The translations under genes and the position numbers were made by a program. A DNA stretch of 9,120 nt, from NCBI RefSeq assembly GCF_003334815.1, contig NZ_QOWO01000063.1, one strand, 5' to 3'. Positions 1-9,120 of the stretch are shown here, piece by piece (position 1 is the stretch's first letter; each line of letters starts with the position of its first letter). This DNA is from Escherichia coli (lineage in GTDB: Bacteria > Pseudomonadota > Gammaproteobacteria > Enterobacterales > Enterobacteriaceae). The notes beneath the pieces were generated by a model, which did no database searches, had not been told where the DNA came from, and worked only from the letters and a program-made list of their open reading frames with translations.

Positions 1-94
1 AAAAAATCGGCTCAAACATGAAGAAATGAAATGACTGAGTCAGCCGAGAAGAATTTCCCCGCTTATTCGCACCTTCCTTAAACCCGATACGCTT

Positions 95-1390
95 TTGATC
101 AATAAAGTCCATGCAGAAAGCCTAAGGCTTGATTGGCTGGCTAAGACCACGCCTCCAGTCGCTAGTGTTCATCCTACCGTGCCTCTTGCCGCTCCTGCCC
201 CTACTATCGATAACGAGTATGTTAATCGAAAGTATTACACTAAGAATCTGTCGTGGTTATGCTCTGAATATCTAAAGCATCGGCGCAAGGGCAAGGTATC
301 GGAGTCGGCTATAAGTGATATCCGTAACTATTTCAGCTTTATGATCGAAGCGATGGGTGACATTCAGTTGGAAGATTTTGATCGCGATTTCCTCCGGGCT
401 TATGAGAGCAAACTGCGCACGATCCCAGCAAACCGTAATTTAGTCAAAGCTAAATATGGAGTGAAAACGCTGGATCAGTTAATCGCCAAAGCGGCAGAAT
501 GCGGCGATAAATTGATGACTGAGGAATCCGTTAGGAAGTATATCAACGGCATTTATGGTGCAATGAAGTGGGCTGTTGCTGACGGTAAGCTACTGAAATC
601 GCCATGCGAAAACTTTTTTCCATCCGATGATAAAGATGAGCGAGATCAGGATCACACTGACATATTTGAACCGCATGAAATTAAAGCGATTTTTTCGTTA
701 CCGTGGTTTGAGGCTGGAACTGTTGAACGCAATGCGCAAGGGCGATTCCATCAATATTGCCCGTTTAACTATTGGGCAATATTGATGGGCTTGATGACGG
801 GGGCGCGAGTTAATGAAATCGCTCAGTTACTGCTGAGTGATGTTCTGGCAGACGACGGCGTCTATTATTTGAACCTTGAAAGCGATAATGAAAGCGGAAA
901 GAAACTCAAAAATGCTAATGCTCGCCGCAAGATTCCGCTCCATTCAAAGCTGATTAGTCTCGGTTTCATCGACTACGTGAACGCCTTAAAAGATGCAGGG
1001 TATACCCGTCTCTTCCCGGAGCTTAAACCACATAAAACAAAAGGCTATGGTAGGCCAGTTTCCGCATGGTTCAATGAATCGTTGCTTGCGGGGCGGTTGA
1101 AACTCGAGAGGAACAGAAGCAAATCTTTCCATTCTTTTCGCCACTCAGTTTCGACTTTGCTCAAGGAGAAGGGCGTTAGCTCAGAATTACGAGCGCAGCT
1201 ACTTGGGCATGTGCGCGGCGAAACTGAAACGGAAGTGCGATATAGCAAAGACCTCAAACCAATTCATATGATTGAAGTCGTGGAGAAAATTGATTTTTCG
1301 TTACCTGATATAGCGGAATTCAACATTCCTGACGGGCTGGATGCTGTCAGAGATGCGTTGCGAAGAAAGCGTGGCAAACAAACAGGTTGA
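95..1390 (+). CDS. Tyrosine recombinase / phage-type integrase
   Basis: Long ORF whose C-terminal half carries the tyrosine-recombinase catalytic signature: LMTGARVNEIAQ (box I Arg), then HSFRHSVSTLL ... LLGHVRGETETEVRYSKD (H-x-x-R, His, catalytic Tyr). The first in-frame start is TTG at 95 (in-frame stop at 32..34) with no clear SD; GTG at 179 and ATG at 341 are alternatives, so the 5' end is uncertain. Confidence 0.8.
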   Translation: MINKVHAESLRLDWLAKTTPPVASVHPTVPLAAPAPTIDNEYVNRKYYTKNLSWLCSEYLKHRRKGKVSESAISDIRNYFSFMIEAMGDIQLEDFDRDFLRAYESKLRTIPANRNLVKAKYGVKTLDQLIAKAAECGDKLMTEESVRKYINGIYGAMKWAVADGKLLKSPCENFFPSDDKDERDQDHTDIFEPHEIKAIFSLPWFEAGTVERNAQGRFHQYCPFNYWAILMGLMTGARVNEIAQLLLSDVLADDGVYYLNLESDNESGKKLKNANARRKIPLHSKLISLGFIDYVNALKDAGYTRLFPELKPHKTKGYGRPVSAWFNESLLAGRLKLERNRSKSFHSFRHSVSTLLKEKGVSSELRAQLLGHVRGETETEVRYSKDLKPIHMIEVVEKIDFSLPDIAEFNIPDGLDAVRDALRRKRGKQTG

Positions 1391-1423
1391 ATCAGTTACT
1401 ATTCAGTTGAGTGATGCTTGAAT

Positions 1424-1455
1424 GCGCTGGGACGCTTCCTGGCGCGTTTTTTATT
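1424..1455 (+). terminator. Rho-independent terminator downstream of the integrase
   Basis: GCGCTGGGA / TCCTGGCGC stem (9 bp including two G-U pairs, 4-nt loop CGCT) followed immediately by TTTTTTATT at 1447..1455; lies between the convergent integrase and the 1523..1855 gene. Confidence 0.45.
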
Positions 1456-1522
1456 AAGGGTGGTGGATTTCATAGTGCTGAATTTGGAGACGCTCAAAAC
1501 ACGTTTGGTGAAACTTGATGAC

Positions 1523-1855
1523 CTACGATTGCACCCGCAGCCCTTCTACGCTTTCTGATGGTAGATTTATCACTGTTTTAATGCTGGCCTCTATGTTGCC
1601 AATGATGTCTTCGCGCGGGCCGCTGCGCCAGTCATCGCTTGCGTAAAAAGCGTCGAGAACCGTAGTCATGCTTTTAGGGCTGACAAAGGCGCGAATCAGG
1701 TAATAGCAGTCCGGGTCATGCAGAGAGTTACCAAACGAAACAACATCGATCCCGTGGCGTTGGTGTAGGGGAACACTGATTTCCTGCATAATGGCGTGAA
1801 AAGCGGCACCGCTGCCTTTGCGTAAGGTGTATTGCAGTATCTCGACGGTTCTCAA
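1523..1855 (-). CDS. Small dimeric alpha/beta-barrel protein, NIPSNAP/ABM-like (hypothetical)
   Basis: 110-codon ORF; the N-terminus MRTVEILQYTLRKGSGAAFH resembles the beta1 motif of NIPSNAP/stress-responsive alpha-beta barrel proteins. TTG start at 1855 with a GGAG 8 nt upstream on the minus strand; an out-of-frame ATG (1860..1858) is followed by a stop after two codons. Confidence 0.5.
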   Translation of the reverse strand: MRTVEILQYTLRKGSGAAFHAIMQEISVPLHQRHGIDVVSFGNSLHDPDCYYLIRAFVSPKSMTTVLDAFYASDDWRSGPREDIIGNIEASIKTVINLPSESVEGLRVQS

Positions 1856-2828
1856 AGCATTATCTCCGCGTCGCCTCTGGACGGCTCCCTTGTTGATAGC
1901 AATAAAGTAAACCGGACTGGGCCATGAAGCTACTGCTAATCAGACAGTCATCCGTAAGCAAAAGCTGCGATATGCGGTTCAAACGCGCTGTAAGGCTCTC
2001 TGGCGAGTGTTTTAAAGAAGGTAGTCGAAATCATGGTGCAGAATTCGCGGCGCTCTCATAGAGTGACTGGCGAAGCCAGTTGAAACAAGCGTAGCGGAGT
2101 TCGAGCAATCAATGAGAAATCTGGGCGAGCTTTAAGCTTTACCGCGCTTCTTAACTTTTGAGTCTGTTTGGCTCTATAAGGATAAGCCTGCCGCCGTGGA
2201 AATTTTCGGACGCTATGCCTGAGAGGGGCGCTTCCAAACCTAGGGCATCCACTTTTTCGCTCCCAACTTATCTGGCTGCATTTACACCGCGAACACGTTG
2301 AACGTTAGCAGCTTCTGGTTCGTATTTGGTTGTTACGCAGGAGAGGTAAAAACGGCAGGTTTACTTTTGACGGCAACGCCATAAGACACCAAACAGCAGA
2401 GAAGTGTAATTGTTAAAAATGTTAAAACATAACTTGTTCTTTAAGATGTAAACCCTTCCTCGGGGGGGAAGCCGGACATATCAACCATAAGGCCATCTGA
2501 GAAGATAGCCTGTAGGTTGCTCGGTTCCCCTTGCCAGATGAAGATCAAGTCTTCCTCGTGGTGTGACGACCTTTCTTGAAAGATGCATTATGCGCAAAAG
2601 AAGCTACTCAAGAATCCGCCGATAGCTACTTTCACCCTCTGCTTGGCTGCATCAAACGCTTGCGCGCCCTACCTACCACAATCAACGTTACGCAGAGTTC
2701 CCATCCTGACGTCTTCCGCTAAACAGCGGTGATCTCCACCTACCCGGACCGGTTTACCGCATGAGGTAGGTGTCAGGAGAGAAGCTAGCACACCATCATT
2801 TTAAAGAAAAGTCATATATATCATATGG

Positions 2829-2851
2829 CTGCGTTCATATTCTGAACGCAG
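2829..2851. repeat. Perfect 9-bp inverted repeat (CTGCGTTCA-N5-TGAACGCAG) just downstream of the DUF1643-like gene
   Basis: Read directly: 2829..2837 is the reverse complement of 2843..2851. No adjacent T-tract on either strand, so it is more likely a protein-binding site or RNA hairpin than a classical terminator. Confidence 0.5.
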
Positions 2852-2860
2852 TTATCGATG

Positions 2861-3327
2861 TTAACCTAAAGGTATGAGAACACTGTCGTTTTTCATATAC
2901 AAAGGGTGCTTCGGCTCACCTGTAGCGTTTAAGACGAAGCACATTGTGCTCTCTGGCAATAGCTGTCGGACGGTCGTTGAGCGTTTGAGGTGTCTTCCTT
3001 CATTTCCCCATGCGGCGACAACCAGTCCGGCACCGCTAACAAGACGTATCAAGTGGCTATCGTTATCTTTGCCAATGGGATCAGACGCTTTCATCATTTC
3101 ATGTCGCTGGGTGTGAACGAATGCGAACAGGTTGGCCATGTATACGCCACCGTAGCCCCAGCTTTTGGCAAACGATATGCAGCGGCTCAAGGTGCGATCA
3201 TCCTTCTCAGCATCGGCGTATGAAGGGTTTAGCCCTATGAAAAGGGCATATGGTTTTGATTCGTCCCAGACTCGTGATAACGAGTAGCGATATTGACCGC
3301 ACGGTGAAAAATCGCGTCTTTAATCAT
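2861..3327 (-). pseudogene. DUF1643-family gene interrupted by a frameshift in a homopolymer run (or N-terminally truncated product from TTG 3190)
   Basis: The 2861..3190 ORF translation contains SRCISFAKSWGYGGVYMANLFAF ... VAAWG ... GEPKHPLY, matching the DUF1643 pattern as I remember it. The same frame continues upstream (KPYALFIGLNPSYADAEKDDRTL, also family-typical) to a stop at 3320..3322 with no start codon. An ATG with an AAGGA SD 8 nt upstream sits at 3327..3325 in another frame and terminates after 30 codons. The two frames meet at the A5 run at 3307..3311; adding one base there gives a continuous ORF of about 155 codons. Confidence 0.5.
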
Positions 3328-3398
3328 TTCGGTTGTCCTTATGAAGTGATGGTTTCAGCCTAACATGTCTTTATCCGTTTTAAGCGCCAACAAACGAC

Positions 3399-3499
3399 CG
3401 TTTTCTGGCACCTCCCAATCGCACGCTTTCACACTGTTGGAAAAATAGCCTTGGCTTTTCTGGCAGGCCATCCTAATGTTGGCCTCGTTTTCTGGCAGG
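3399..3499 (+). promoter_or_regulatory. Three direct repeats of TTTTCTGGCA upstream of the serine recombinase (candidate res-like or operator region)
   Basis: Core TTTTCTGGCA at 3401..3410, 3456..3465 and 3488..3497 (flanks cgTTTTCTGGCAcc, gcTTTTCTGGCAgg, cgTTTTCTGGCAgg). A small inverted repeat AGGCCA-N9-TGGCCT lies between copies 2 and 3. The last copy ends about 22 bp before the recombinase ATG. Confidence 0.4.
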
Positions 3500-3519
3500 G
3501 GTCAGATGGGGAGATAACA

Positions 3520-4080
3520 ATGGCAACTTTTGGCTACGGACGTGTTTCGACATCGCAGCAGGATACTGAGAACCAACGGCTGGAGCTTGGGCAGGCTGGG
3601 TGGCAAATTGATTACTGGTTTGCCGATGTTGTTAGCGGGAAGGTTCCGGCAATGCAACGTAAAGCATTTTCTGAAATGCTCAATAAAATCCGCGATGGTG
3701 AAACGTTGGTGGTAGCGAAGCTTGATCGTCTGGGGCGTGATGCGATTGACGTCTTGCAAACGGTAAGGGCGCTGGCTGACCGTAATATCAAGGTTCTTGT
3801 CCACCAGCTTGGTAACACAGATCTCACTTCTGCCGCTGGGAAGTTGCTATTATCTATGCTCGCCGCGGTTGCGGAGATGGAGCGTGATCTGCTGATTGAG
3901 CGCACTCAGGCGGGACTATCACGAGCAAAAGCCGAAGGTAAGAAATTGGGCAGACCTCCTAAAATCGCGTCAGAAGCCCGTAGAGAGATTTTAGAGAAAA
4001 AGAATAGCGGTTTGAGTATCAGTGCGTTAGCGCGTCAATATGGCGTTTCAAGAGCGACTGTAGCAGCTATTACCGATTGA
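3520..4080 (+). CDS. Serine recombinase (resolvase/invertase family)
   Basis: Translation from ATG 3520 (GGGGAGA SD about 6 nt upstream) begins MATFGYGRVSTSQQD with the catalytic Ser motif, then LVVAKLDRLGRD and a C-terminal HTH (GLSISALARQYGVSRATV) after a GRPPK linker. This is the classic small serine recombinase architecture. The ORF-track start at 3451 is an upstream in-frame extension without an RBS. Confidence 0.9.
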   Translation: MATFGYGRVSTSQQDTENQRLELGQAGWQIDYWFADVVSGKVPAMQRKAFSEMLNKIRDGETLVVAKLDRLGRDAIDVLQTVRALADRNIKVLVHQLGNTDLTSAAGKLLLSMLAAVAEMERDLLIERTQAGLSRAKAEGKKLGRPPKIASEARREILEKKNSGLSISALARQYGVSRATVAAITD

Positions 4081-4093
4081 ATATGGAGAGTTT

Positions 4094-4939
4094 ATGGCTT
4101 ACACAGCAACTGTTATCCCTGTAATGATTGCTTCTCCTGGTGATGTCGCTGAAGAGAGACAAGTCATTCGTGAAATGATCCATGAGTGGAATGATATAAA
4201 TTCAGCTCGTTCAAAAGTAATGTTGACACCAATTGGATGGGAAACTCATACATCACCCGAATTAGGAGTTAGGCCTCAGGAGTTGATTAATCAAAGATTA
4301 TTAGTAGATTGTGATTTATTAATCGGTGTGTTTTGGACTCGTCTAGGCTCACCGACTGGGAACGAGGCCAGCGGAACAGTCGAAGAAATCCACCGTCATT
4401 TGAATGCGGGAAAACCGGCAATGATTTACTTTTCCTCAAAGCCTGTTGCCCCTGAAAGCCTTGATAGAGAACAATATGAGTCTCTTAAATTGTTCAAAAC
4501 TGAGTGCATGCAAAAGGGATTGATAGAGTCTTTTAATGACTTATCTGATTTCAAAGAAAAAGTCCGTAGGCAACTTTCGATAATTATTTCTAGTAGCCCT
4601 TATTTGTCTTCTCTTATATCTACCATTAACAATTCTCCTGATGCGAATACAAGTCAATCTTTGCCAGAAAGTAATTTGTCCGCCGATGCACTCAGTTTGC
4701 TGAAATTAGCATGTGTCGATGATAGCGGAACAATTTATGTGATAAGGCATTTAGGTGGCACGGATATTCAAGCGGGAAATCAATCCTTTGGTGGAAGTTC
4801 GGCTAGAGAGGTAGCCCGTTGGGAGGGCGCACTTAACGAACTGTTATCCTTTGATTTTGTGATTGAAAGAGGGGCAAAAGGACAAATGTATTATGTTACT
4901 CATAAAGGCTGGACATTTCTTGAATCTTTAAATGAATAA
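4094..4939 (+). CDS. Hypothetical two-domain cargo protein; N-terminal domain resembles a DUF4062/TIR-like Rossmann-type domain, C-terminal domain unknown
   Basis: ATG 4094 with GGAGAG SD; starts 13 bp after the recombinase stop. The N-terminal segment VMIASPGDVAEERQVI ... LVDCDLLIGVFWTRLGSPTG ... GTVEEIHRHLNAGKPAMIYF fits the strand-helix pattern and conserved acidic/ER and CD motifs I associate with DUF4062-type domains (from memory, unverified). The gene is visibly more AT-rich than the recombinase. Confidence 0.55.
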   Translation: MAYTATVIPVMIASPGDVAEERQVIREMIHEWNDINSARSKVMLTPIGWETHTSPELGVRPQELINQRLLVDCDLLIGVFWTRLGSPTGNEASGTVEEIHRHLNAGKPAMIYFSSKPVAPESLDREQYESLKLFKTECMQKGLIESFNDLSDFKEKVRRQLSIIISSSPYLSSLISTINNSPDANTSQSLPESNLSADALSLLKLACVDDSGTIYVIRHLGGTDIQAGNQSFGGSSAREVARWEGALNELLSFDFVIERGAKGQMYYVTHKGWTFLESLNE

Positions 4940-4999
4940 TTAAATGCGAGGTCATTACATAAGTTTATTTTTGATGTTAGGGTGAATTCCCTCACATTT

Positions 5000-5494
5000 T
5001 TATTCGAAAGAGGCCGCAATGACTTCTCCTGTTTTTGCGTTGAAAACACAAAAGTATTGAAGCGGAGCTAGCATCCCCAAGCTGTTAACTACCTTAGCTT
5101 GTTGCCCAAATGCCTGAATAATCTTCGCGTTCTCATCGTGCCAGAGATAAGTATTAAATACAGGCGCTTCGCTTTCTTGCCACACATGGCGAAACTTCGC
5201 TTTCTCATCCATTACCTTTTTGCACTCCCTGACCGGGTTATGGTGCGTTTTCGCATAGCATTCCGGGTTGTCATCTGCACATACGATATCTTTTCGTGCT
5301 GTCTGATGCTCAGCACCTACAGCAGAAAAGGCGCATACGCCCAGCACCAATGAGAGAGTGCCCAGAGCACCCCATACAGTTGCGCGTAGCGTGCTGATGT
5401 GCTGCTTTGATACAGCATGGGCAACTACACTATAACTGGCCCAGCTAATCGCGGCTCCCGCTGCAATCGGTAATAAAAAGTCTGCTCCCGTCAT
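5000..5494 (-). CDS. Small membrane protein, two predicted TM helices plus a Cys-containing C-terminal domain (hypothetical)
   Basis: ATG at 5494 with GAGGG SD 5 nt upstream on the minus strand. Hydrophobic segments ADFLLPIAAGAAISWASYSVVAHAV and ATVWGALGTLSLVLGVCAFSAVGA are followed by a soluble domain with several Cys. The ORF-track start at 5551 is an extension without an RBS. Confidence 0.6.
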   Translation of the reverse strand: MTGADFLLPIAAGAAISWASYSVVAHAVSKQHISTLRATVWGALGTLSLVLGVCAFSAVGAEHQTARKDIVCADDNPECYAKTHHNPVRECKKVMDEKAKFRHVWQESEAPVFNTYLWHDENAKIIQAFGQQAKVVNSLGMLAPLQYFCVFNAKTGEVIAASFE

Positions 5495-5554
5495 GATTCC
5501 CTCACTTTCCAAACCACATCGCGCCTGATAGCGAACGCTGGTGACGCCCAACCG

Positions 5555-5568
5555 ATGATGATCATCAT
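5555..5568. promoter_or_regulatory. Perfect 14-bp palindrome ATGATGATCATCAT in the divergent intergenic region (candidate operator)
   Basis: Read directly; self-complementary across the 5561/5562 centre. It sits about 60 bp upstream of the membrane-protein start and about 165 bp upstream of the XRE regulator start. Confidence 0.4.
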
Positions 5569-5734
5569 ACTTGTTGGGTTTTAAATGTCACCATTGGTGT
5601 TTGTTTTGAATCAAAAAGGATTGTCATGATACAGCCGATGAATGCTAGTGACTAAGCTCGCTGAAGTGAGATTGGATTCAAAATATCTCATATGGAGCGT
5701 GGCCTTACAGTGGTCAAAATTGCACATTCAGTGC

Positions 5735-6199
5735 ATGAAAAAATCCCTGAGAATACAGTTTGGCGAGCGGGTAAAAGAACTGCGCATTGCCACCGGATTG
5801 AGCCAAGAGGCCTTTGCCGATCGGTGCGGGTTTGCACGTAGTTATATGAGCAGAATTGAACGTGGTGGCTCTAATGCGTCTCTGGATGCGATTGAGGTGC
5901 TGGCTAACGCTCTGAGCGTTGAGCCGTGGCAGTTGTTAGCGCCTGGCCCATCTGAAGATAACGACTCGGAACTGTTGGTTCCATACGCAGCCGATGGTTC
6001 CTGTTTTCACCCCGGTTTGGCGAGCACCCGTGATGGTTCGTTTGGCGTAGGTGATAAAGCGGCTCAGAAGCGTTTTGGCACGTTTGCTGAAGCTCTTGAG
6101 TATCTTCGTAGCATGGAGACAGCAAAATGGCGTAGGCCTAATCCTAGCGGCAACTGGGGTATCGTATCAGCGGTTCGGTGGGACAAACTGAGAAAGTAG
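5735..6199 (+). CDS. XRE-family (Cro/cI-type) helix-turn-helix transcriptional regulator with an uncharacterised C-terminal domain
   Basis: MKKSLRIQFGERVKELRIATGLSQEAFADRCGFARSYMSRIERGGSNASLDAIEVLANALSVEPWQLL is a textbook XRE HTH. The start was chosen at ATG 5735 because the HTH then sits at the N-terminus; no good SD at either 5735 or the ORF-track start 5642, so the start is uncertain. Confidence 0.75.
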   Translation: MKKSLRIQFGERVKELRIATGLSQEAFADRCGFARSYMSRIERGGSNASLDAIEVLANALSVEPWQLLAPGPSEDNDSELLVPYAADGSCFHPGLASTRDGSFGVGDKAAQKRFGTFAEALEYLRSMETAKWRRPNPSGNWGIVSAVRWDKLRK

Positions 6200-6678
6200 C
6201 TCAAGTGTAAGTTTATGAATTTTTATGCTGTATGGATGAACAGTATTCATTAGATGCTGATAGTCTTATGTTTCATCAGCCCTTTGTTTCTATAAGAGTG
6301 AATAAAACAGCAAAATGCGGGTGCGTTACGGTGGCGTTTCGCTTTGGCTCTTAATGGCTTAATTCATATAAATAACATTGAGTTAAATAGTTATTCTGAA
6401 CAAGGTCTGCCGGGGTCTAACTGGTTTCAAAATCCGAACGCAGTGGCGTTTATTCAACGTCCACATAGCTGACAAATGTTCTTTCCTCCCGACTCGGCAG
6501 ACCTCCAGAAACATTAAAAGGCAGGTATGGCACGTTGATGTTTTATGCCGCCACGAACACTCGGTTTGATTCCGTCCAGCGGATCAAACTTAATATGTAG
6601 CCCCTAGAACAAAAAGGTCCTACGATTGCTCTCTTAACAGCTAACAGGAACGTGATTACAGCAGGTTATAGAGACTTA

Positions 6679-6703
6679 GGTTCGAGTCCGGCCTTCGGTA
6701 CCA
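6679..6703 (+). repeat. tRNA-Leu 3'-end-like sequence (T-loop, acceptor 3' strand and CCA): candidate att direct repeat / island junction
   Basis: GGTTCGAGTCCGGCCTTCGGTACCA matches the 3' end of enterobacterial tRNA-Leu(CAA) (leuX type, recalled as ...CCGGTTCGAGTCCGGCCTTCGGCACCA) with one mismatch. The upstream sequence cannot form the rest of a cloverleaf (the T-stem 5' strand is TTAGG, not GCCGG), so this is a 3' fragment, not a gene. Confidence 0.55.
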
Positions 6704-7236
6704 AGTTACTAAATTCCTTACAATACAGTTAGTTAGACGATTAAATCTGTCTCTTTTGCCTGTAAGAAATGCTCTGTTATGTCCCTTGAAAAAGCCGCTG
6801 TGGTTGATAGTGGTAATTGGGATGTTAACTCATAGCGGCGTGTCGTTCCAAGCGTCAAACACGTACTGACTCAACTTGAAAGCTATGACGTAGCCACCGT
6901 CTCTAAACAATCCCAAAACTTTTAGTGCAGCGCATTTTAGCCCGATGCCCCCATTCTGTCGCCGTCGCGAGACGCCGCAGGGGATAAACAGGTTTATGGT
7001 GGTCACGGTACTTGCAGACCATATGCAAGCTCTGCCAGCGGTTCGGCCTCGCTCCCCTTGGGTACATGGTCATCCTGATAAGCCTCACTAACTGACATAA
7101 CCCTGATGAAGTCGCAAGAGGCTCCGCTTGTTGTCTTACCACCAACGGGGCTTTATGGATTCTATTGCTTAATATATGATTGTATCAAACTTAGACTGCA
7201 TAATTTAAACGAACATAACAATCAGGCAGGGGAAGA

Positions 7237-8061
7237 ATGATAAAGCCATTTTCTGTGAGGTATGGTCATGTTGACGTTAGAGAGCATGTCCAGCTGAATG
7301 ATCTTAATTCTGATACACGCATGGCATTGTGGAATTGCTTATATCTTTTCCTTTGGACTAACAATCGTCAAACTGCTACAGCAACAAAATGTGCGCAGTC
7401 TGTGTGGATATATTATCTAAATCAACCTGCGGATAATATTCCTCGTTATGAAAGTGGATACAAAAGTGATAAGACGTTGCTGACTGCTATCCGAGATTAT
7501 ATATATGGGGAAGCATGGTATTTGGTATATGATTTAATTGAGTTCATCATTGAGAGAACTAATTCATATATTAATCTATCGAAGCATCTCAATTCCATCT
7601 TTAAAAAGCATGGCGTTGGTTATACCATAATAAATGGTTGTATTACTCCTATTTCAAATGATAACGAAATTGAAAGTGTTCAGAACGCAGTTGATAATGG
7701 CACTGATTCATCGCGTAGCCATTTCGAAAGGGCGTTACAACTAATGACGGATAGAGAGCAGCCAGACTACAGAAACTCGATTAAAGAGTCTATCTCTGCA
7801 ATTGAATCTTTATGCAGGAAAATCACGGGCAATGATAAAGGAACCTTGGGGGCTTGTCTTAAAGCTATAGAGGAAAAAGGATATATACACTCTGCAATGA
7901 AAGGCGCTTTTAGTCAGCTCTATGGTTATACAAGTGATCAGGGTGGAATACGTCATGCGCTAACAGAAGAAGATGTAAATCCTACCTTAGCTGAAGCTAA
8001 ATTTATGTTAGTCACTTGCAGTGCGTTCAGTAATTATCTGTTGTCAAAAATAAGTGATTAA
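7237..8061 (+). CDS. AbiJ-like abortive-infection protein (AbiJ N-terminal-type domain plus C-terminal HEPN-like domain), putative
   Basis: ATG 7237 with GGGGAAG SD. The N-terminus FSVRYGHVDVREHVQLNDL ... RMALWNCLY fits the FS-x-R-x-G ... LWN pattern I associate with AbiJ N-terminal domains. The C-terminal part has PDYRNSIKESISAIESL ... GYTSDQGGIRHALTEED ... AKFMLVTCSAF, typical of the linked HEPN-type domain. Family assignment is from memory, not a search. The gene is strongly AT-rich. Confidence 0.5.
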   Translation: MIKPFSVRYGHVDVREHVQLNDLNSDTRMALWNCLYLFLWTNNRQTATATKCAQSVWIYYLNQPADNIPRYESGYKSDKTLLTAIRDYIYGEAWYLVYDLIEFIIERTNSYINLSKHLNSIFKKHGVGYTIINGCITPISNDNEIESVQNAVDNGTDSSRSHFERALQLMTDREQPDYRNSIKESISAIESLCRKITGNDKGTLGACLKAIEEKGYIHSAMKGAFSQLYGYTSDQGGIRHALTEEDVNPTLAEAKFMLVTCSAFSNYLLSKISD

Positions 8062-8079
8062 TTACAGGTTTATAGTTAC

Positions 8080-8114
8080 GAGTGGGTTAGTTACCCACTC
8101 CCTTTAAAATTATT
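8080..8114. terminator. Candidate bidirectional terminator between convergent genes
   Basis: Perfect 8-bp stem GAGTGGGT / ACCCACTC (8080..8087 and 8093..8100, 5-nt loop) followed by CCTTTAAAATTATT; lies between the stop of 7237..8061 and the stop of the 8110..8682 minus-strand gene. Confidence 0.4.
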
Positions 8115-8682
8115 CACCAGACTCTAATCTTTTTTCTCTTTTCTCATCTCTCCTTTTTATTGCCAAATCGTGTTGCTCTTGCAGATACGTGCGTTCTTCG
8201 TTTCTATCGCTTGAAGTATATACGTCTGCTTTTACTTTTTTAGCTCCTTGTGCAATAGGTTTCCAATCCTCTCTTATACCTTTAATTTGTTCTGCAATTT
8301 GCGTCAATGGGCTTCTCGCTCCTAGATAACTTATTCCTTCAAATGTCGCCATGTCATACACATATTCATTTGTTTCTCTATCGTTTGATTTAGGTTTGCT
8401 TGCCCAGCTTATATTAATATTATAAATTTGATCTTTGATTTGTTCATACTTACAGAGATTGCTGGTAAGTGATTGCCCATTTTTTAACACGCTTACCTTA
8501 CTAAACGGAATCTCACTTTTTTCTCTATGCTCCGCATTTACTAGTGGAGGATCAAACACAACCTCAACATTATAGGCAGGTGCGTTCCCTGTATTAGCAA
8601 TGTTAATATCAAAGTAAAAAGCGGCCCAAGGGTTTGGCTCAAGTGTTACAACTATATGGGGTTGAGCTGATGCGTCAACCAT
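8110..8682 (-). CDS. Hypothetical protein (AT-rich cargo gene, no recognisable family)
   Basis: Start assigned to ATG 8682..8680 (MVDASAQPHIVVTLEP...). The ORF-track extension to 8736 would run into the IS terminal repeat and is therefore unlikely to be native. The C-terminal tail is Lys/Arg/Glu-rich. Confidence 0.5.
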   Translation of the reverse strand: MVDASAQPHIVVTLEPNPWAAFYFDINIANTGNAPAYNVEVVFDPPLVNAEHREKSEIPFSKVSVLKNGQSLTSNLCKYEQIKDQIYNINISWASKPKSNDRETNEYVYDMATFEGISYLGARSPLTQIAEQIKGIREDWKPIAQGAKKVKADVYTSSDRNEERTYLQEQHDLAIKRRDEKREKRLESGE

Positions 8683-8710
8683 TCTTTTTGTCTCGTCTGC
8701 TCTGAAGTGG

Positions 8711-9045
8711 TGAAGTGGTTTACTGAATTTGGCCACCTGAACAGAGGTGATATGCTCACCTCAGAACAACACAGGTGCTCCAATGAAAAAAAGAAATTTT
8801 AGCGCAGAGTTTAAACGCGAATCCGCTCAACTGGTTGTTGACCAGACATACACGGTGGCAGATGCCGCCAAAGCTATGGATGTTGGCCTTTCCACAATGA
8901 CAAGATGGGTCAAACAACTGCGTGATGAGCGTCAGGGCAAAACACCAAAAGCCTCTCCGATAACACCAGAACAAATCGAAATACGTAAGCTGAGGAAAAA
9001 GCTACAACGCATTGAAATGGAGAATGAAATATTAAAAAAGGCTAC
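8711..9045 (+). mobile_element. IS3-family insertion sequence (IS911-like), left end with terminal inverted repeat and orfA; truncated/interrupted at 9045
   Basis: The terminus TGAAGTGGTTTACTGAATTTGGCCACC begins with the TGAAGTGG...GGCCACC pattern I recall for IS911 ends, and the downstream sequence encodes an IS911-type OrfA. An extra TGAAGTGG copy sits immediately upstream at 8703..8710. Confidence 0.75.
8783..9045 (+). CDS. IS3-family (IS911-like) transposase OrfA (HTH/leucine-zipper N-terminal protein), 3' end disrupted by insertion
   Basis: Translation [88 protein letters not shown] is near-identical to IS911 OrfA as I remember it. After codon T (9044..9046) the reading frame continues into unrelated sequence. 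Confidence 0.8.
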
Positions 9046-9120
9046 TGTAGATTCAATCTGTCAATGCAACACCCCTTTCAATTATCTCTTTCGGTGTTTT
9101 GAACTTCAGTGTCTTTCTCG
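9046..9120 (+). mobile_element. Terminus of an IS30-family element inserted into the IS911-like orfA (continues beyond window)
   Basis: The sequence from 9046, TGTAGATTCAATCTGTCAATGCAACA, resembles the IS30 terminal inverted repeat (recalled as TGTAGATTCAATTGGTCAACGCAACA). The junction is exactly where IS911 homology stops. Confidence 0.5.

Follow-up and report, generated by a model that had tools for sequence, protein, structure and literature searches.

A DUF1643 pseudogene on a tRNA-Leu island of Escherichia coli, very probably the young and fixed product of the loss of a single T from a run of six

Proteins of the DUF1643 family have been described from several kinds of mobile DNA. In staphylococci, the family is found in the ccr gene complex of SCC elements together with SAUGI and DUF960 (PMC10581047). 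It also occurs as a passenger of an ISL3 element (PMC13231603) and in Stenotrophomonas phages (PMC7326821), and in the literature on DUF1643 the family appears as cargo only. By family and context, the locus analyzed here resembles the SCC ccr complex, with which it shares the Pfam family, a location on a mobile island and serine recombinase neighbours (PMC10581047). However, SCC elements have large serine recombinases (CcrA/B/C), whereas the partner found here is a 186-aa protein of the invertase/resolvase type, with scores that fall well short of the Ccr cut-offs. The second point of comparison is provided by the contingency loci of Haemophilus, Neisseria and Campylobacter, which likewise have a frame-setting mononucleotide run near the 5' end of an ORF. 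In contrast to those loci, the run studied here is no longer than 5-6 bases and, across ~300 genomes, keeps a constant length within a haplotype, in the manner of ordinary mutation.

The closest counterpart is a pseudogene that is already annotated. The RefSeq/PGAP pseudogene CIW80_RS16540 of E. coli Nissle 1917 (NZ_CP022686.1) occupies the same 467-nt interval, on the same strand and with the same lesion, as in the 9,120-nt stretch of E. coli DNA analyzed in this work (contig NZ_QOWO01000063.1 of assembly GCF_003334815.1), hereafter called the window. The surrounding DNA is 100% identical over 801 nt, and window positions 78..9120 are 99.9% identical to the Nissle 1917 chromosome. The lesion is therefore already known, since RefSeq flags the same interval as 'frameshifted'. 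Nothing of substance differs between the two loci, except that in the window an insertion-sequence end (1..77) also interrupts the integrase gene. Strains with the intact allele, WP_000588537.1, differ from the window in having six Ts (T6) and an open frame, and their intergenic region is divergent on the recombinase side.

Structure of the broken gene and its family

The coordinates of the main features are collected in Table 1. The Shine-Dalgarno (SD) motif of the broken gene is also kept in the intact homologue on plasmid pYLMB10a. From the native ATG, frame 0 reads MIKDAIFHRAVNIATRYHESGTNQNHMPFS up to its TAG; only the first seven residues (MIKDAIF) of this 30-aa product are native, and they are followed by the out-of-frame stretch HRAVNIATRYHESGTNQNHMPFS. 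The DUF1643 frame lies in the +2 phase and is open from just past a TAA at 3324..3322 to its stop at 2863..2861. Its translation contains ...FSPCGQYRYSLSRVWDESKPYALFIGLNPS... and ...FSPCGQYRYSLSRVWDESKPYALFIGLNPSYADAEKDD... The addition of one T to the run of five (T5) gives GCG ATT TTT TCA CCG and a 468-nt ORF of 155 codons, in which the six Ts of the ancestral form span codons 6-8 (ATT TTT TCA, I6 F7 S8).

A preliminary description of this DNA had correctly placed the SD motif, the ATG at 3327 and the stop after 30 codons, as well as the overlap of the two frames at the A5 run at 3307..3311, and its proposal that one extra base restores an ORF of about 155 codons is borne out by the insertion of a T. 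It had also held that the DUF1643 frame runs to 2861 without any start codon. This is true of the region close to the true N-terminus, but further downstream the frame can be started at a TTG, leaving 109 aa, and gene callers in other genomes choose an internal ATG, for a product of 92 aa (P0013). Homopolymers of five or more bases occur 42 times in the window, so the T5 run alone is ordinary. What stands above chance is the combination of a break exactly in the run, T6 in every intact relative and a match to the full DUF1643 model.

Table 1. Features of the DUF1643 locus and of its recombinase neighbour, in window positions unless another locus is named
Feature	Position	Strand	Remarks
DUF1643 pseudogene	2861..3327	minus	467 nt; intact form 468 nt (155 codons and stop)
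AAGGA Shine-Dalgarno motif	3340..3336	minus	8 nt 5' of the native ATG; read from sequence
Native ATG	3327..3325	minus	start of frame 0
Residual 30-codon ORF from the native ATG	3235..3327	minus	ends at TAG 3237..3235
T5 homopolymer (A5 on plus strand)	3311..3307	minus	1-base deletion site; frames swap here
Longest startable remainder of the DUF1643 frame	2861..3190	minus	TTG 3190; 109 aa
Three direct copies of CGTTTTCTGGCA	3399, 3454, 3486 (span 3399..3497)	plus	DUF1643-recombinase intergenic region
Small serine recombinase, DNA-invertase/resolvase type	3520..4080	plus	186 aa; phrog_125 DNA invertase, E = 1e-55
Two-gene shared unit	about 2820..4070; L002 2430..3672; L004 5292..6532		sequence comparison

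The Pfam model PF07799 (DUF1643) is matched in full by residues 14-143 of the repaired protein (model positions 1-134 of 134, E = 6.1e-43), which also matches phrog_3230 with E = 8e-53. More than 1,300 homologues were found, typically of 153-165 aa and with ~99% query coverage. The repaired translation carries every residue that is invariant in a 40-sequence alignment of the family, namely A5, S8, C10, Y13, R14, W21, L33-N34-P35, N66, F68, W107, G137, P139 and H141-P142-L143. Its AlphaFold2 model (pLDDT 94.1, pTM 0.90) was compared with AFDB50 by Foldseek, giving TM scores of 0.91-0.97 to proteins annotated as DUF1643. In all 155 residues it equals WP_000588537.1, the intact E. coli protein carried by strains 510016, H7, NCTC9112 and EC19. 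The assignment to DUF1643, which had been proposed from the letters alone, is thus confirmed by profile and by structural model: the repaired protein belongs to the family, and the window copy, in which the frame breaks after codon 7 at T5, is a pseudogene of it.

Translation from the native SD and ATG would depart from the DUF1643 frame after residue 7 and end at codon 31, while any restart downstream would lack the first 46 or more residues. For instance, the product from TTG 3190 would be without residues 1-46. Missing with them would be three core β-strands, at 2-7, 13-20 and 27-31 in the model, as well as the invariant S8, C10, Y13, R14, W21 and L33-N34-P35. As every restart would go without these strands and most of the invariant motifs of the N-terminus, the T5 allele would be a loss of function, and any truncated product is probably non-functional.

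Origin and spread of the T5 allele

The intact homologue on the IncHI1B plasmid pYLMB10a (~85% DNA identity) reads GCT ATT TTT TCA at the corresponding site, that is T6, within a 468-nt ORF. T6 was also found in ECONIH5, O157:H7 PA20, 1943, 510016, H7, FORC_031, 401651, NCTC9112 and EC19. Among the copies examined, T6 is present in 10/10 that are intact or otherwise diverged and T5 in 6/6 on the window haplotype. Because all copies examined on other haplotypes have T6, T6 is the ancestral state and the window carries a 1-base contraction. The preliminary description had named a two-frame arrangement in orthologues, with an independent start for the downstream part and reads that support the run length, as an observation that would speak against its reading; the intact orthologues show a single ORF with T6 and no such layout.

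An exact 81-nt T5 probe was matched by 297 complete E. coli genomes and an exact 82-nt T6 probe by 50. In ~237 further genomes, mostly O157:H7, the 82-nt footprint has two SNPs and is also T6, so that the carriers, ~585 in total, divide into 297 with T5 and ~287 with T6. The T5 haplotype is present in ~5% of complete E. coli genomes. Several separate Nissle 1917 assemblies (CP022686, CP007799 and CM187577) are among the T5 carriers, together with independent assemblies of ATCC 25922 and its derivatives. The PGAP label 'frameshifted' was found in 5/5 T5 genomes whose annotation was read (Nissle 1917, O157:H16 98-3133, WCHEC020031, ETEC4067 and E94). In the Nissle 1917 annotation, locus 6174..6640 corresponds to window 3327..2861 and is named 'DUF1643 domain-containing protein, frameshifted'.

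Over 3.5 kb (window 1450..4950), no more than one SNP (0-1) separates the window from the T5 loci of five unrelated strains, and the whole 9-kb arrangement is present in 285 genomes, which is near the T5 count. Strain 1943, a carrier of T6, differs from the window over 3.5 kb by 9 substitutions and 3 indels, including that in the run. The 510016 group is a mosaic. Inside the gene, the run indel is its sole difference from the window, and in the ~0.5 kb downstream of the gene, to about window 2400, most of its strains have one or two more differences. Below ~2400 divergence climbs again, and from ~3406 upward, on the recombinase side, it amounts to 25-30%. At least five T6 haplotypes were sampled, and T5 was seen on none of them; in the simplest history T5 would have arisen once, on one island haplotype. 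The flanking yjgR proteins differ among carriers of the identical T5 haplotype, and the island therefore appears to have spread in part horizontally; such later spread would be needed for a single event.

Compared with the allele of 510016, H7, NCTC9112 and EC19, the T5 allele lacks one T and is otherwise unchanged within the gene, with no second lesion. The dN/dS ratios of intact DUF1643 copies are 0.08-0.11 at dS of 0.35-0.9 (diverged pairs), which points to strong purifying selection. Given a ratio of about 0.1 in the intact copies, the gene would therefore be useful in its usual setting and the window copy would be a recent loss. We are confident that window 2861..3327 is a young, fixed DUF1643 pseudogene on a tRNA-Leu island, formed by a single T loss from T6; of the readings offered at the outset, a recent pseudogene was the right one. 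The feature is an ordinary 1-base homopolymer deletion that inactivates an accessory gene and is inherited by ~5% of complete E. coli genomes. The ancestral T6 would have lost one T, most simply by replication slippage, in one event on one island haplotype, before this haplotype spread into many E. coli backgrounds. The loss was presumably neutral.

The same single deletion could also have been advantageous, with inactivation of DUF1643 aiding the spread of this island variant, possibly because the gene is costly or in conflict with another element. Such selection would agree with the frequency of the T5 haplotype and its occurrence across backgrounds with different flanking alleles, and with the independent inactivations represented by Y59* in strain FORC_031 and by truncated plasmid remnants. 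However, hitch-hiking with successful clones by itself accounts for the frequency, and intact copies are about equally frequent and under strong purifying selection. We consider a selected loss unlikely.

Damaged copies of other kinds were observed as well. In FORC_031 (L012, locus 6023..6490), DUF1643 is independently inactivated by a C-to-A change at window 3152 (Y59*), and PGAP annotates the gene with an 'internal stop'. Many plasmids of Salmonella, E. coli and Shigella (H40-H57) contain only the 3' two-thirds of DUF1643 at ~82% identity (query positions 344..672). These remnants sit where no gene is annotated and are probably further relics; the matching proteins have 126-129 aa (P0019-P0021).

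The island and the recombinase partner

The island adjoins a tRNA-Leu gene, which we take from the K-12 map to be leuX, beside ahr and yjgR. Its content, in order, is an integrase, a NIPSNAP-family gene, ~1 kb without annotated gene, DUF1643, the divergent small serine recombinase, a DUF4062/PDC-S60-like gene, a membrane protein, an HTH regulator, AbiJ-NTD4/PDC-S32, a hypothetical gene and IS remnants. The DUF4062 protein (window 4094..4939) matches the N-terminus of the PADLOC candidate PDC-S60 (E = 6e-27), the regulator (5642..6199) is 'control protein'-like, and the AbiJ-NTD4 protein (7237..8061) matches PDC-S32 (E = 6e-104). These neighbours look like defence-island cargo.

At the other end, window 1..77 is missing from the Nissle 1917 locus and matches scattered sites in E. 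coli genomes and plasmids, like an insertion-sequence end; we recognise in its ...GAAGAATTTCCCCGCTTATTCGCACCTTCC what is presumably the terminal repeat of IS5. This end cuts the island integrase gene (95..1390), which is left with a 431-aa ORF compared to 636 aa in other strains. From the NIPSNAP gene to the DUF1643 stop, ~1 kb (1856..2860) is gene-free in every RefSeq annotation examined and 96-97% conserved in O157:H7 PA20 and 510016. On pYLMB10a and in ECONIH5, DUF1643 is followed by a 1017-nt gene; this stretch was considered as its relic, and the comparison showed no similarity. An Rfam scan of the window gave zero matches.

The small serine recombinase, with dN/dS of 0.06-0.08, is a conserved neighbour of DUF1643 in chromosomal islands and on pYLMB10a. 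The unit common to the window, pYLMB10a and the ECONIH5 island (85-88% identity) contains DUF1643 and this recombinase only, which suggests a two-gene module moving between contexts. Among the neighbourhoods of distant homologues, which represent varied mobile-element and restriction contexts, no fixed partner gene was found. The distant homologues adjoin type I restriction genes together with a large serine recombinase, an SNF2 helicase, or an integrase fragment. The context of DUF1643 is consistently that of a mobile element or a defence island. In strain 1943 (L003), DUF1643 is intact and the recombinase (locus 5271..5830) is 'frameshifted' by a 1-base deletion homologous to window 3696.

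The three CGTTTTCTGGCA repeats between the two genes may be protein-binding (res-like) sites. The boundary of the mosaic falls at the innermost repeat copy (~3406..3431) and is sharp: on the DUF1643 side the sequence equals that of the 510016 group, and on the recombinase side that of strain 1943. It looks like the outcome of an exchange at a putative res-like site of the serine recombinase, and its sharpness would follow if the repeats act as a res-like crossover or operator site. A more far-reaching reading would make the pair a self-contained mobile or DNA-handling module (ccr-like), with CGTTTTCTGGCA as its res-like crossover or operator and T5 as a selected, or leaky and slippage-rescued, loss of a DNA-glycosylase-like cargo. 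Taken as a whole, we regard this combination as very unlikely. An invertible segment flipped by the invertase-like neighbour was also considered. Only four short inverted repeats (12-16 nt, 81-92%) are present, none of them sensibly bracketing the gene, and no inversion was seen at the locus, all genomes examined being collinear.

Alternative readings of the run and the use of the allele pair

The gene would still be alive if full-length DUF1643 were made from T5 by -1 ribosomal frameshifting or by transcriptional slippage. The native SD and ATG are undamaged, and if peptidyl-tRNA-Phe slipped back by one base on UUUUU, its pairing would again be perfect and the native AIF-SPCG would be restored exactly. 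However, the zero-frame codons are GCG AUU UUU CAC, which makes the in-phase heptamer G AUU UUU and not X XXY YYZ. The predicted folding energy of the 89 nt that follow is -21.2 kcal/mol (z = -1.83), which 9/200 shuffles equal. Furthermore, the two-frame layout is kept in no homologue, the intact ones all having one ORF and, at this place, either T6 or unrelated codons. Judged by its sequence, the site falls short on all three counts of a programmed -1 frameshift of the dnaX or IS1/IS3 transposase type. A T5 run is too short for productive RNA-polymerase slippage, and an allele one mutation away from the intact one looks accidental and not like a designed signal. Spontaneous frameshifting may give trace amounts of full-length protein, and we consider a gene kept alive by recoding highly improbable.

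A slippage-prone, phase-variable site had also been proposed, at which T6 would be ON and T5 OFF, with frequent switching between them. Both run lengths are indeed common in E. coli (297 vs ~287 genomes), and a homopolymer at the very start of an ORF is the classical position of a switch. However, the two lengths segregate by haplotype and not within one. Run length follows the haplotype and not the strain, all sampled members of the window haplotype have T5 (6/6), and T5 is absent from the T6 haplotypes sampled. High-frequency slippage needs mononucleotide runs of about 7-8 bases or more. An A/T run of 5 bases, or 6 in the intact alleles, is well under the tract lengths at which enterobacteria with working mismatch repair switch measurably.

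T6 on the T5 haplotype was searched for with a 217-nt probe, whose T5-type recombinase-side flank drops 510016-like genomes and whose T at 3243 drops 1943-like genomes. The only genome matched at 100% was FCI55 (L016, NZ_CM172716.1), that is 1 of ~298 on the T5 haplotype. FCI55 has the same whole island and flanking proteins as its near-clone WCHEC020031, from which it is set apart, in 12.7 kb, by one SNP and four homopolymers that are longer or shorter by 1 base; the T5-to-T6 change that makes DUF1643 look intact is one of the four. We discounted this T6 because such a ratio of homopolymer indels to SNPs is a signature of assembly noise. It is likely a homopolymer error in the assembly and, with less probability, a genuine reversion. 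By sequence comparison, no credible switching in either direction is seen among the ~585 carriers, and a phase-variable locus is accordingly a very doubtful reading. Sequencing or assembly error, with a true run of T6 and an intact gene, was the third possibility raised at the outset and is effectively excluded because an identical T5 is carried by ~297 independently produced complete genomes and the five annotations read are 'frameshifted', with T6 read without difficulty in ~287 other genomes and a run of 5 bases only, even though homopolymer miscounts are a common artefact and FCI55 shows such noise in the very same region.

DUF1643 is a compact α/β protein that recurs as mobile-element cargo. 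No model of PADLOC or NCBIfam matched it, no solved structure was related to it by sequence or profile search, and the PHROG family that it matches carries no assigned function. In our reading, three of its features resemble what we take to be motifs of uracil-DNA glycosylases (UDG): G-L-N-P-S, which follows strand 3, resembles motif A; N66, which follows strand 4, the Asn that contacts the base; and H141-P142, close to the C-terminus, motif B. As a tentative working guess, DUF1643 may be a DNA-base-processing enzyme of uracil-DNA-glycosylase-like architecture.

Beyond correct annotation, the finding matters little. It provides a worked example in which a homopolymer frameshift common to hundreds of assemblies reflects inheritance and not sequencing error or phase variation. 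Nissle 1917 and ATCC 25922, strains in wide laboratory and clinical use, carry the dead copy of the gene, while an equally large set of genomes carries the live copy, one base apart. This natural pair of T5 and T6 alleles is a convenient entry to the role of DUF1643, a family common on mobile elements including SCCmec.
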